DNA from: Candidatus Latescibacterota bacterium
GTDB lineage: Bacteria; Latescibacterota; UBA2968
Reading direction: 5' to 3'
Assembly: GCA_965204375.1 (NCBI GenBank)
Contig: OZ241986.1
Span: forward strand, 5,376,001 to 5,440,000
Length of the DNA: 64,000 nucleotides
Positions 145 to 2,048 of this stretch are shown here, piece after piece (the first letter of the stretch is position 1; each line of letters begins with the position of its first letter). The notes under the pieces were generated by a model. The model had not been told where the DNA came from. It did not search any database and saw only the letters and a program-made list of their open reading frames with translations. A program made the position numbers and the translations under genes.

Positions 145-149
145 AGTAT

Positions 150-200
150 CCTCTTTATCCTTCTTGCCTTTCTTCGTGTTTCTTCGTGTCCTTTGTGGAT
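150..200. repeat. Short simple-repeat element (TTCTTCGTG tandem)
   Basis: ttcttcgtgttcttcgtgtcctttgtgga. Confidence 0.6.
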
Positions 201-202
201 CT

Positions 203-229
203 CTATCTATCAATTTCTGGAACGACAAT
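203..229 (-). repeat. Recoded duplicate of the nuoD 3' end (IVVPEIDR*)
   Basis: 23/27 identical to 918-944; all 4 differences fall at third codon positions. Confidence 0.9.
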
Positions 230-234
230 TTGTT

Positions 235-426
235 TCATCTTGTTATATCGCTAGTTTTTGAGACGGTCTGATCAAAGATGGTTTGTAAGGGTGTTCGAAA
301 TTCTCGGTTTGATTCTCGTTCCTGCCGTCTGAGGTCTTCGCATATCGCGTGAAGATCATTATTAAATCGTTCAGCGTAAGCACGGCTAATTTGGCGTATT
401 TCATTTACGATGGGGTCATCAATCAT
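235..426 (-). CDS. Small putative antitoxin partner of the PIN protein
   Basis: MIDDPIVNEIRQISRAYAERFNNDLHAICEDLRRQE; overlaps the PIN gene stop; similar to 18918..19100. Confidence 0.7.
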   Translation of the reverse strand: MIDDPIVNEIRQISRAYAERFNNDLHAICEDLRRQERESNREFRTPLQTIFDQTVSKTSDITR

Positions 427-901
427 CGTCGGCCTCCAATAATTCTTCGGGTGTACAGAGGATGGGCGGATCGTATTCAGCAGCACGACAGATGCTCTCT
501 ATCGCAGGGCGAAGCGAGGCATTCAAGATGTGTCGGAAGTTCCACGATACGAGATATTGTACTCCGTGCGTGGCAGCCAAGGCGATATGCAATGCATCAC
601 GCGGCTGGTTGTCTGGAATTGCATGGCCTTGAATAAGAGTGGCGGCCAGAGATTCTGCATTTGATGTAACCGGAAGAACGGGTATGCCTTCAATGCTGTC
701 GAGGCGGTCCTTTACAGCTTTTGAGTCGCCATCCGAGCATTCGCGGATTACCAGTTGGGAAACAAATAGATCAAACCTTTGAGCAGCAGTTGACCACCAC
801 AATTTTGTCGTGTTCTGATGACCGGCGATAGTCACATCTTGATGAGGCCAAGATGTTAGATAGCCGATAACCGATGTTTCGATATAGACGCTACGATTCA
901 T
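419..901 (-). CDS. PIN-domain (VapC-like) toxin
   Basis: VYIETSVIGYL, RDALHIALAA, YLVSWNFRHI, ILCTPEEL motifs; likely start ATG at 901. Confidence 0.85.
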   Translation of the reverse strand: MNRSVYIETSVIGYLTSWPHQDVTIAGHQNTTKLWWSTAAQRFDLFVSQLVIRECSDGDSKAVKDRLDSIEGIPVLPVTSNAESLAATLIQGHAIPDNQPRDALHIALAATHGVQYLVSWNFRHILNASLRPAIESICRAAEYDPPILCTPEELLEADDD

Positions 902-917
902 TTGACCATTTCTTTTT

Positions 918-2048
918 TTATCTGTCAATTTCGGGAACGACGATGTCGATGCTGCCCAGAATAGCTACAGCATCGGCGAGCATGGTGCCGGCCATGACGG
1001 CGGGCATGGCCGAGATGTGTGAAAATGATGGGGTTCGCAATTTGAGGCGAAAGGGGATGTCGCTGCCGTCACTTGCGATGTACATGCCGAAGTTGCCTCG
1101 GGGTGATTCTACGCAGAAGTAATAGTCGCCTTCGGGCGGGCGGATGCGTCTGGGCACCCGGGCTGCGAGAAAGAGGCCATCGGGCATGTCGCTTACGGCT
1201 TGTTCGATGATGCGAATGCTCTGGCGCATTTCTTCCATGCGAACGAGTGTGCGGGCAAAGCAGTCGCCTTCTGTTTGTGTGGGCACGTCAAAGTCAAAAC
1301 GGTCGTAGATGCCATAGGGTTCGTCTCTGCGGACGTCGTGTTCATGGCCCATGGCGCGCAAACAGGGGCCTGTTATGGCGTATTTTTGTACGAGGTCGGG
1401 CGCGAAGATACCGACGCCAATGGTGCGTTCGCGGAAGATGACGTTGCCGATGACGAGTTTTTCGTATTCTTTTAAGCGTTCGACAAAATAGGTGCAAAAG
1501 TTGGAGACATTGTCGAGGAATACGTCGTCGATGTCGAGAATGACGCCGCCAAATCGCGCGTAACAATAGGTGAGGCGCGATCCGGTGATGCGGTCGAGGA
1601 TGTCGAGGATTTTTTCCCGGTCGTCAAAGGCGTAGAGAAATGGGGTAAATGCGCCCAGGTCCATCAAAAAGGTGCCCAGCCAGAGCAGGTGGCTGGAGAT
1701 GCGGTTGAGTTCATTGCAGATGATGCGGATGTATTCGGCGCGTTCTGGCACTTCGATGTCCATCGCGCGTTCTACGGCTTGACAATAGCCTATGTTGTAG
1801 ATCATGCCGCCGAGATAATCCACGCGGCTCGGGTTGGGCAAAAACTGGATATAGTCGCGGTTTTCGGCCATCTTTTCGTGTGCGCGATGCCCGTAGCCGA
1901 TGATGGGTTCTGCCGAAATTATGCGTTCGCCATCCAGGTGCAGTTTGATCCGCATGACGCCGTGGGTAGAGGGATGCTGAGGCCCCATGTTGAGATAATA
2001 GGTATCTCGACTTTTCGGATCTTGTTCGACCTCAAATCGGCTGTTCAT
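918..2048 (-). CDS. nuoD: NADH-quinone oxidoreductase subunit D
   Basis: LNMGPQHPSTHGVMR, GYGHRAHEK, ESPRG, C-terminal EIDR; no NiFe CxxC motifs. Confidence 0.95.
   Translation of the reverse strand: MNSRFEVEQDPKSRDTYYLNMGPQHPSTHGVMRIKLHLDGERIISAEPIIGYGHRAHEKMAENRDYIQFLPNPSRVDYLGGMIYNIGYCQAVERAMDIEVPERAEYIRIICNELNRISSHLLWLGTFLMDLGAFTPFLYAFDDREKILDILDRITGSRLTYCYARFGGVILDIDDVFLDNVSNFCTYFVERLKEYEKLVIGNVIFRERTIGVGIFAPDLVQKYAITGPCLRAMGHEHDVRRDEPYGIYDRFDFDVPTQTEGDCFARTLVRMEEMRQSIRIIEQAVSDMPDGLFLAARVPRRIRPPEGDYYFCVESPRGNFGMYIASDGSDIPFRLKLRTPSFSHISAMPAVMAGTMLADAVAILGSIDIVVPEIDR

Follow-up and report, generated by a model that had tools for sequence, protein, structure and literature searches.

The question raised by this locus is how an essential operon came to hold, between two of its genes, a second and recoded copy of a gene end. 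The last 27 nt of nuoD occur there twice, once as the real end of the gene and once as an orphan on the far side of a toxin-antitoxin (TA)-type cassette. It seems probable to us, if not strongly so, that the orphan is a functionless scar, namely the tip of another nuoD allele, left behind by the recombinase-independent reshuffling of an old and variable TA islet.

The genome studied (G000) is a metagenome-assembled genome (MAG) of Candidatus Latescibacterota and belongs to an uncultured lineage; its habitat holds several related populations. The window, by which we mean the whole stretch of DNA analysed, comprises 64,000 nt. Twenty-one genomes of the same genus formed the comparison set. A class of four genomes, every one of them islet-bearing, is referred to as a-type, and the other core-clade genomes number 12. 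The features between nuoD and the left edge of the window were as follows:

918..2048, minus strand: nuoD (376 aa; Pfam Complex1_49kDa, E 7.6e-93)
918-944, minus strand: real nuoD 3' end, last 27 nt, b-type (GAC AGA TAA), 1 mismatch against the end in G018, G002 and G006
902..917, minus strand: spacer AAAAAGAAATGGTCAA, 16 nt, from the nuoD stop to the PIN ATG, seen in G000 only
419..901, minus strand: PIN-domain gene, 160 aa, putative toxin in a module of two genes (PF01850, 28.1 bits; cut-off 23.6)
235..426, minus strand: small partner ORF, 64 codons, overlapping the PIN stop by 8 nt
226..238, minus strand: ATGAAACAAATTG, truncated start (first 13 nt) of gene3, 12/13 identical to ATGAATCAAATTG of G020
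203..229, minus strand: orphan nuoD 3' end including the stop, a-type (GAT AGA TAG), 1 mismatch against the real end in G020
148..202, minus strand: purine-rich imperfect repeat, 55 nt (AGATCCACAAAGGACACGAAGAAACACGAAG...), from the orphan to DUF2442, the same sequence following the real nuoD end in G014
1..147, minus strand: 5' part of a DUF2442 gene, with its start at 147 and the remainder beyond the left edge of the window (PF10387, 29.3 bits)

On the minus strand, the nuoD end (944-918) is ATC GTC GTT CCC GAA ATT GAC AGA TAA and the orphan (229-203) is ATT GTC GTT CCA GAA ATT GAT AGA TAG. They differ at 4 of 27 nucleotides, all at codon position 3, so that both translate as IVVPEIDR*, and the longest identical run between them is 8 nt. 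By our own arithmetic, the chance of a 27-mer with at most four mismatches is about 8e-11 per position, corresponding to about 0.0025 chance copies expected genome-wide, if 6 kb downstream of each of 4953 crude ORF-genes are considered.

The PIN gene and the small ORF show two features of a type II TA module (PIN/VapC-like), a PIN-domain toxin candidate and an adjacent, co-conserved small partner gene. Of 18 other loci with a PIN paralogue, 9 have a homologue of the small ORF directly downstream of it (tblastn, E <=0.01). In the classical vapBC order the partner stands upstream of the toxin, whereas here it stands downstream. The PIN gene had no NCBIfam match, and the small ORF none in either Pfam or NCBIfam. 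The DUF2442 gene measures 105 aa in all and matches the antitoxin DhiA of NCBIfam weakly (29.1 bits against a cut-off of 200); its stop lies about 170 nt left of the window and is followed, after about 30 nt, by nuoH. PIN was the sole domain that Pfam detected in the insert, integrases and transposases being absent from it, and no integrase, transposase or att-like site was recognised among the ORFs inspected by eye over the stretch that begins about 6 kb left of the window and ends at its position 6000. The third gene of the cassette, gene3, is complete in G020 (91 aa) and cut to 13 nt in G000, where its ATG (238) overlaps the TGA of the small ORF. The tetranucleotide ATTG is common to codon 4 of gene3 and to nuoD position -27; it also belongs to the orphan and marks the right junction. 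The 5' region of gene3 itself resembles the nuoD end, with a local score of 12 that was reached by 0.13% of 20000 random 45-mers.

Among the genus genomes, the nuoD-nuoH junction is empty in 11 of 21, the two genes being 7-9 nt apart, and occupied by a 106-nt spacer in one; insertions of 0.7-4.1 kb with differing content were found in seven, and in the remaining two nuoH was not found within 7 kb. The islet is a mosaic of the PIN gene with its small partner, DUF4160/DUF2442 genes, large genes and decayed remnants. A copy of the PIN gene 93% identical to that of G000 occupies the same junction in G006, all remaining matches being at most 49% identical; the cassette is also present in G020, and remnants of the PIN gene or small ORF were seen at this junction in G015, G019, G017 and G011. 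The left junctions of the same cassette differ in G000, G006 and G020, with only CAA before the ATG common to all three in the alignment, and on the right the cassette of G000 breaks off within the 13 nt that remain of the truncated gene3, at the short similarity patch. G006 additionally carries a 10-nt orphan nuoH start. Searches of the JGI metagenome collection for the exact nuoD-PIN left junction of G000 and for the PIN 5' end pattern returned 0 matches each, which says little because exact matching was required.

Both copies of the nuoD end could be assigned to alleles. The real end of G000 is b-type, as in genomes with an empty site, whereas the orphan differs by one base from the real end of G020 and by two bases from those of G014 and G015. 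The repeat and DUF2442 start that stand behind the orphan in G000 stand behind the single real nuoD end in G014, with 1 mismatch in about 57 nt; in 11 genomes the nuoD end is likewise single and followed by nuoH. Since the orphan matches real a-type ends and shares the downstream repeat and DUF2442 with G014, it is, as judged from these sequence matches, the tip of another nuoD allele. The four synonymous differences taken alone would also be compatible with a duplication that was once identical. Consistent differences between the a-type and the other 12 core-clade genomes were limited to four sites within the final 16 nt of nuoD and a single one at -985. The preliminary description had reported the recoded copy, had seen no integrase or transposase, and had traced the copy to a different nuoD allele rather than to a fresh target-site duplication; the first and the last of these statements stand, the second holds for the cassette and for the ORFs inspected by eye, and the gene content downstream of nuoD, which it had proposed to compare between strains, does vary among relatives.

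The genes nuoD and nuoH flank every junction allele, with core-clade identities of 91-97% (91-97% in the first 300 nt of nuoH, 93-95% in nuoD). Windowed identity of the two genes against relatives revealed no near-identical donor. When G000 was compared with five pairs of relatives by informative sites and maximum chi-square, the signal for an imported nuoD segment was weak (permutation p 0.021, 0.063, 0.241, 0.293 and 0.185). The locus shows no mark of recent import, because all its parts display ordinary between-species divergence.

From these data we infer the mechanism, direction and timing of the recombination as follows. Two diverged versions of the locus would have recombined, one consisting of nuoD, PIN, small ORF and gene3, and the other of nuoD with an a-type end, repeat and DUF2442, as in G014. 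On one side, the exchange would have proceeded by normal homologous recombination within one of the flanking nuo genes; on the other, an illegitimate join at a short patch (ATTG, then TTCC.GA.ATTGA) between the gene3 start and the last 27 nt of nuoD. Survivors must keep nuoD and nuoH intact, and such a join therefore appears as a short duplication of a gene end; the mismatches would be synonymous because each version had formed the genuine nuoD end in a lineage of its own. The predicted parent, nuoD(b)-AAAAAGAAATGGT-PIN-small-gene3, occurred in no sampled genome and gave 0 matches in exact-pattern JGI metagenome scans.

A single homologous anchor with ATTG microhomology fits homology-facilitated illegitimate recombination (HFIR), which PMC3240628 defines by one anchor in homologous DNA and junctions at microhomologies of 3-10 bp. 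The process is described in S. pneumoniae, Acinetobacter baylyi, Pseudomonas stutzeri and E. coli conjugation. The likeness extends to the conserved homologous side (nuoD or nuoH), the junction of a few bases, the lack of a recombinase gene and the addition of foreign or allelic DNA beside a conserved anchor. There are two differences: the present case is reconstructed from natural genomes, and the end of the anchor gene is duplicated, whereas according to PMC3240628 resident DNA is usually deleted rather than duplicated. For HFIR to yield a duplication, either nuoH must have served as anchor for the incoming fragment, or the resident nuoD end must have paired with the gene3 patch. It should be added that the gene3 patch could be an older, decayed orphan rather than a substrate of recombination. 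If the probable origin by reshuffling is correct, the locus provides a clean natural example, and one from an uncultured phylum, of how selfish TA cassettes settle and are rearranged within an essential operon that stays intact, no recombinase being involved.

The strongest competitor, which we regard as possible but rather unlikely, is insertion with long target duplication. Here PIN, small ORF and the gene3 start would have been inserted at an a-type nuoD end with duplication of 23-27 nt, and the nuoD-attached copy would later have been overwritten up to the stop by b-type recombination, or mutated under purifying selection. This class was described by the Kobayashi group for restriction-modification systems in Helicobacter, Haemophilus and others, and PMC2853133 characterises it by the lack of a mobility gene and by a repeat that may overlap a gene 3' end. 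The nuoD locus resembles it in its addiction-type cassette with neither integrase nor transposase and in its direct target repeat, which overlaps a gene 3' end and is single in relatives. It departs from the class in that the cargo is a PIN-type TA pair, the copies are alleles with four synonymous differences, and the repeat of 23-27 nt falls short of the >30 bp given as threshold in that text. Four changes would also be needed in the nuoD-attached copy, all towards b-type states, and a conversion tract would have to end exactly at the stop codon. Moreover, the insert ends in a truncated, target-like gene, for which a homology-guided join is a better fit than a staggered cut.

Much of what speaks for long target duplication comes from elsewhere in G000, where the terminal 27-mers of a crude ORF-based gene set (4953 crude ORF-genes) were scanned for further copies, the search covering gene ends. 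The 420 raw matches fell to 80 after removal of genes with more than three matches, mostly CRISPR-like arrays, and to 36 rows (34 genes) after removal of copies lacking a stop or ending at the stop of another predicted gene. The final pick was made by eye and retained 15 genes; tandem repeats less than 250 nt apart, copies within long open frames, common ends of paralogue families and weak rows with six mismatches were discarded. Stop-ending 27-mers had 28 short downstream copies (<=4 mismatches, total similarity <=150 nt), as against 12, 7, 2, 6 and 9 for control internal 27-mers taken 60, 120, 180, 240 and 300 nt upstream; the genome-wide recurrence of gene-end copies that the preliminary description had proposed to look for was thus found. 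Besides the nuoD orphan, 14 orphan ends of other genes were picked, their repeats measuring 27-108 nt, and the loci with repeats of 36-108 bp fit the long-target-duplication class well. The textbook case lies at 2.5397 Mb, where a 480-nt insert lies between the copies of a 36-38-bp repeat that overlaps a gene 3' end; G014 has the same arrangement, and the repeat is single in G009, G018 and G020. A further locus at 4.358 Mb (27-nt repeat, HTH_37 cargo) proved to lie in a multi-copy accessory gene family and was set aside.

The presence of fifteen such scars in G000 alone suggests that this lineage commonly undergoes illegitimate insertion in which gene ends are duplicated. Because orphan termini can be dated, they could serve to reconstruct in what order such hot spots were built up. 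One might go further and suppose that recombinase-free capture of small addiction-type cassettes at gene termini is a main route of gene gain in the genus, each capture exploiting a brief resemblance to the terminus of the adjacent core gene and leaving an orphan terminus behind; we think this improbable. Termini could in that case stack over time, since what is now the start of gene3 may be a nuoD end of earlier date that has decayed. If true, such capture would be the housekeeping-gene counterpart of C-terminal displacement in Rhs/CDI systems. In the effector-immunity loci of Rhs, CDI and T6SS systems, new modules are likewise added behind a conserved gene body and old 3' ends moved downstream (HFIR has been proposed for the orphaned 3'-end arrays of T6SS and Rhs loci, PMC5361080); the displaced 3' end there is a functional toxin domain with an immunity gene, whereas the orphan here consists of nine nuoD codons with no plausible function.

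The orphan at the nuoD end has a neighbour at the other end of the gene, described by two further features:

2121..2140, minus strand: orphan nuoD start (ATGAATCGATTTGAGGTCGA), identical to the compact nuoC/nuoD junction of 9 genomes
2049..2120, minus strand: intergenic element from the orphan nuoD start to the real nuoD ATG (2048), its first ~30 nt belonging to a short repeat family

This is a second chimeric scar of the same type, and it speaks for the reshuffling proposed above. The ATGA of this orphan start overlaps the nuoC stop, and the chimeric nuoC/nuoD form is common to G000 and G015. The repeat family in the first ~30 nt of the element has about 96 copies, and the contig depth of the element in this bin was about 2000 in 3 of 4 runs and 230 in X16. 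The word GATCCACA was tried as a signature of the element and abandoned, as the 54 matches to GATCCACA[AG]A lay mostly within unrelated sequence; the true repeat family is the ATCC[AG]CAGATG.ACGCAGAT part alone.

Prophages and islands, such as phage 21/e14 in icd and the islands in tRNA genes, encode an integrase, integrate at a fixed att core and bring a replacement gene end, and recoded gene ends flanking the insert are their hallmark. The preliminary description had envisaged a cassette that arrived together with a nuoD end and displaced the resident one; as a site-specific integrative element with its recombinase encoded elsewhere, it would share with them an intact gene and a recoded 3'-end duplicate marking the far side of the insert. 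The tight linkage of the a-type terminus to the islet speaks for such an element, which we hold to be very unlikely. The cassette lacks an integrase in Pfam, the same cassette has three left junctions, so that neither insertion point nor ends are constant, a-type islets have no second, attR-like nuoD-end copy beside nuoH, identical runs do not exceed 8 nt, and the 15 scars in G000 concern 15 unrelated target sequences. The variable boundaries of the PIN cassette also argue against an integron gene cassette. Nor did the earlier proposal of an undescribed, terminus-targeted acquisition route gain support: it is disfavoured by the three left junctions, by the right junction inside the truncated gene3 and by the single nuoD-end copy of a-type islets, and described phenomena fit. 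The pattern is real and recurs in G000, it conforms to known recombinase-free insertion processes, and a new mechanism is not called for.

It is still more doubtful, and in our view highly improbable, that the orphan is kept for use. Together with the ATG at 238 it forms an 11-codon mini-ORF (MKQIVVPEIDR*) overlapping the small ORF stop, which could couple translation onward or titrate a regulator of the downstream DUF2442/nuoH. The in-frame start and the ATGA overlap are in its favour, as is the X1 strain, with 0 differences across the orphan stretch and 9 in the adjoining 743 nt; in G014, both extra changes of another orphan are synonymous as well. However, the orphan-type end is present as an orphan in 1 of the 21 genus genomes, and the ATG is merely the start codon of the truncated gene3.

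An assembly chimera of co-occurring strains is scarcely credible, even though G000 is a MAG and several related populations share its habitat, because one contig of an independent coral metagenome study (X1) bridges the orphan and the small ORF and another bridges nuoD and PIN, short-read contigs of a second sample (X18) bridge both the orphan and the nuoD-PIN junction, assemblers do not join at a 4-nt overlap, and the nuoC/nuoD scar is common to the independently assembled G015; the strain-chimera artefact against which the preliminary description had cautioned is thus not borne out. Run X2 contained both an empty-site joint and a DUF2442-only joint, and in the X1 strain 39 nt of the purine-rich repeat are missing (joint at L001 743-783).

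The genome under study (G000; 6.34 Mb in one contig) carries a variable toxin-antitoxin islet between nuoD and nuoH, and the following features were located around it, read along the minus strand:

nuoA and nuoB, then nuoC at 2137-2598, minus strand
2121-2140, minus strand: orphan nuoD start, 20 nt, overlapping the nuoC stop
within 2049-2140, minus strand: 72-nt element between the orphan and real nuoD starts
918-2048, minus strand: nuoD
16-nt spacer between nuoD and the PIN gene, minus strand
419-901, minus strand: PIN-domain gene (Pfam)
235-426, minus strand: small ORF of 64 codons, overlapping the PIN stop
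226-238, minus strand: first 13 nt of a third gene (gene3)
203-229, minus strand: orphan nuoD end
148-202, minus strand: purine-rich repeat, 55 nt
start at 147, minus strand: DUF2442 gene (Pfam), running left out of the window

Pfam matches backed nuoC, nuoD, PIN and DUF2442, and the whole-genome sequence left of the window places nuoH, I, J, K and L after the islet. It should be added that the operon order is nuoA-B-C-D and then H-I-J-K-L (window 918-3502 plus ~6 kb to its left), and that in this same stretch nuoE, F and G are absent between D and H, where only the islet lies. The recoded copy of the nuoD end beyond the PIN cassette, reported in the preliminary description, was confirmed: the orphan and the real end (918-944) are 27-nt copies with four differences, all at third codon positions, both encoding IVVPEIDR*, and by our own arithmetic ~0.0025 such matches are expected genome-wide. 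We regard the orphan, with moderate confidence, as a recombination scar of an already known kind, left within a long-established toxin-antitoxin islet of the nuo operon.

The near relatives of G000 are all metagenome-assembled, and contigs from four public metagenome runs were compared with the locus (position in the extracted G000 locus, L001 = window position + 580). Run X16, which may be the source run, contained a 13.5-kb contig identical to the locus; in X18, a second sample of the same study, contigs of 8.4 kb (1-935) and 3.4 kb (1049-4128) showed no differences, and the orphan and the nuoD-PIN junction were both spanned. In the independent coral metagenome X1, a single contig ran from DUF2442 through the orphan to the small ORF, and a separate one joined PIN to nuoD; this strain is without 39 nt of the purine-rich repeat (window 163-203, L001 743-783), the adjoining orphan being unchanged. 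A sponge metagenome, X2, had a joint skipping the whole islet, with five letters of the empty-site spacer (nuoD directly beside nuoH) between the sides, and a further one in which the DUF2442 start adjoins the nuoD end. The orphan arrangement occurs in nature, and alternatives do too.

Comparison of the nuoD-nuoH junction across 21 genomes of the genus, G000 included, revealed variable gene content downstream of nuoD. The gap was 7-9 nt (TAA CGCAC.. ATG) in 11 of them and a 106-nt spacer in G019, no nuoH was located within 7 kb in G001 and G017, and seven genomes, including G000, held differing insertions:

G015: DUF4160 and DUF2442
G014: purine-rich repeat as in G000, truncated DUF2442 and an 852-aa gene
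G009: an 833-aa gene
G020: DUF2442 cut at codon 42, then PIN, small ORF and the complete gene3 (91 aa)
G006: 10-nt orphan nuoH start, then PIN and small ORF
G011: 4.1 kb, with a PIN 3' end and small ORF at its end

Two forms of the nuoD end were distinguished among these genomes. The b-type (..GAA ATA GAC AGA TAA) is the real end in G006 and in 10 of the 11 genomes with an empty site, and G003 has b-type codons but a TAG stop; the a-type (..GAA ATT GAT AGA TAG) is the real end in G009, G014, G015 and G020, all four islet-bearing. The real end in G000 is b-type, with one mismatch against G018, G002 and G006, and the orphan is a-type, with one mismatch against G020 and two against G014 and G015. 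Moreover, the a-type end of G014 is directly followed by the repeat and DUF2442 start found in G000 (one mismatch in ~57 nt). The proposal that the orphan is the end of a different nuoD allele therefore stood: these comparisons indicate that it diverged while serving as a functional gene end in a different lineage. When the final 1059 nt of nuoD (~94% of its length) were compared, the four a-type genomes differed consistently from the other 12 core-clade genomes only at -985 and at four sites in the last 16 nt; the a-type terminus thus travels with the islet, the remainder of nuoD having probably been shuffled by recombination.

The cassette junctions bear on how the orphan arose. One PIN cassette has three different left-hand sequences: a b-type nuoD stop and 13 unique bases in G000, a truncated DUF2442 in G020, and a nuoH-start orphan plus other DNA in G006. 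On the right, the small ORF stop runs into gene3 in G020, G006 and G015 (ATGAATCAAATTGAAACGATTCCTGAGATTGAG in G020); G000 reads ATGAAACAAATTG and then changes to TCGTTCCAGAAATTGATAGATAG, the changeover lying at ATTG, which is common to the gene3 and nuoD-end partners. Past ATTG, the start of gene3 aligns locally to the nuoD end with a score of 12, reached by only 0.13% of 20000 random genomic 45-mers; this stretch may be the decayed remains of an earlier orphan terminus, now read within the ORF, or a chance patch guiding recombination. In G020 (locus L016), the similarity to the nuoD 3' end lies in the first ~30 nt of gene3 (IETIPEIE vs IVVPEID). Beside nuoH, the a-type islets showed no second nuoD-end copy.

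In the reading that we favour, two diverged versions of the locus would recombine, with homology in a nuo gene securing one side and a short similar patch serving as the joint on the other. An incoming G014-like fragment might be anchored in nuoH, and at its far tip the final 27 nt of its nuoD would join and replace gene3; or an incoming fragment running from nuoD through PIN and the small ORF to gene3' might be anchored in nuoD, the gene3 patch pairing with the resident nuoD end. Either route yields the observed product with nuoD intact. The junction features fit homology-facilitated illegitimate recombination, described in PMC3240628 as having one homologous and one illegitimate end, 3-10 bp of microhomology and, usually, deletion of resident DNA; according to PMC5361080, the same process has been proposed for the orphan immunity arrays and the shifted effector 3' ends of Vibrio T6SS clusters and for orphaned Rhs 3' regions. 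Breakpoint tests were weak (permutation p 0.021 to 0.293), and no part of the locus stood out for its similarity to a sampled relative.

[quoted passage not shown] Such insertion is described, in PMC2853133, for restriction-modification systems with no mobility genes and repeats of >30 bp, sometimes overlapping a gene 3' end, and G000 has a clear case at 2.5397 Mb (2539687-2540242), where a 36-38-bp repeat across a gene stop surrounds a 480-nt insert; G014 has the same arrangement, and G009, G018 and G020 each have the repeat once. We consider this rival rather unlikely for the orphan, and a single process may underlie both readings. The undescribed acquisition route put forward in the preliminary description is not needed, since known recombinase-free processes fit.

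For each of 4953 ORFs in a crude gene set, the following 6 kb were scanned for copies of its terminal 27-mer. The first scan was swamped by long arrays in which a 27-mer recurs. These arrays (contig C1 of G000, ~5.2138-5.2198, 5.278-5.280 and 6.330-6.334 Mb, outside the window; spacing 65-85 nt) look like CRISPR arrays. Filtering left 36 rows, from which 15 genes were kept by eye, with repeats of 27-108 nt lying 433-4644 nt apart. Fourteen gene-end copies were picked besides nuoD, all on contig C1: 2539687-2540242 and those of the genes ending at 581183, 927790, 2050003, 2125310, 2161592, 3312351, 3840217, 3964724, 4358360, 4560981, 5594667, 5633009 and 6022732. In a control, stop-ending 27-mers gave 28 short downstream copies, against 12, 7, 2, 6 and 9 for 27-mers from inside the genes, at offsets of 60 to 300 nt upstream. 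One to four genes separate each of these 14 real ends from its copy; Pfam scanning of 16 proteins from the intervals returned selfish or defence-type families (AAA_22, DUF4143/AAA_14, Gp49 (HigB-like), HEPN, YhcG PD-(D/E)XK, PDDEXK_4, HTH_37), ordinary ones (di-haem peroxidase, DUF3500, LPP20, TPR, MacB/FtsX, APH) and no match for three. The 40 mismatches pooled over the 15 pairs fell 12/7/21 on codon positions 1/2/3 (p 0.0096), and with nuoD left out position 3 held 17 of 36 (p 0.058), a mild excess that accords with copies diverging partly as working gene ends. That terminus-guided, recombinase-free capture is a main mode of gene gain in the genus, with termini stacking over time, seems improbable.

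The small ORF had no family in Pfam and NCBIfam profile searches. At 9 of 18 other loci a homologue of it lies directly 3' of the PIN paralogue, and hence the pair behaves as a two-gene module with the putative toxin gene first. The DUF2442 gene stands alone in G000 (window 1-147 and leftwards) and is preceded by a DUF4160 gene in G015 (locus L012); we take these two to be a putative toxin-antitoxin pair, and G000 may therefore keep only its DUF2442 half.

Remnants of the module occur at the junction in other genomes: the G019 spacer holds 25/26 nt of PIN interior and 13 nt of small ORF in kept order, G017 has a small ORF remnant (37/45 nt) directly after nuoD, and G015 retains the small ORF tail and the start and end of gene3. 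The G019, G017 and G011 loci (L020, L034, L035), with decayed PIN and small ORF remnants, belong to a more distant clade (nuoD DNA 84-86% identical). Close PIN homologues are confined to this junction (93% identity in G006; also G020), all other matches being at most 49% identical, and the PIN cassette contains no integrase or transposase. Decayed remnants at one junction in a distant clade, and close homologues there only, show the islet to be an old resident of the site that is decaying and being rearranged, and no multi-copy mobile element.

A further junction of mixed form lies between nuoC and nuoD. In nine genomes it is compact, the nuoD start overlapping or abutting the nuoC stop, and in six a repeat element precedes a nuoD start that differs slightly; the compact form with a different start (MDSRFEV) is found in the four outgroup genomes (G001, G017, G019, G011). 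In G000 and G015 both forms are combined: 20 nt of nuoD start sit at a compact junction (2121-2140), and the element and the other start (2048) come next. The segment 2049-2140, also present in G015, is thus a chimera of two junction types of relatives, and makes a second scar like the orphan nuoD end. Within the element, just the first ~30 nt belong to a short repeat family, ATCC[AG]CAGATG.ACGCAGAT..., which is 10-nt periodic and occurs at 2090-2120 and ~96 places in G000; its summed contig depth in the bin was ~2000 in X18, X1 and X2, and 230 in X16.
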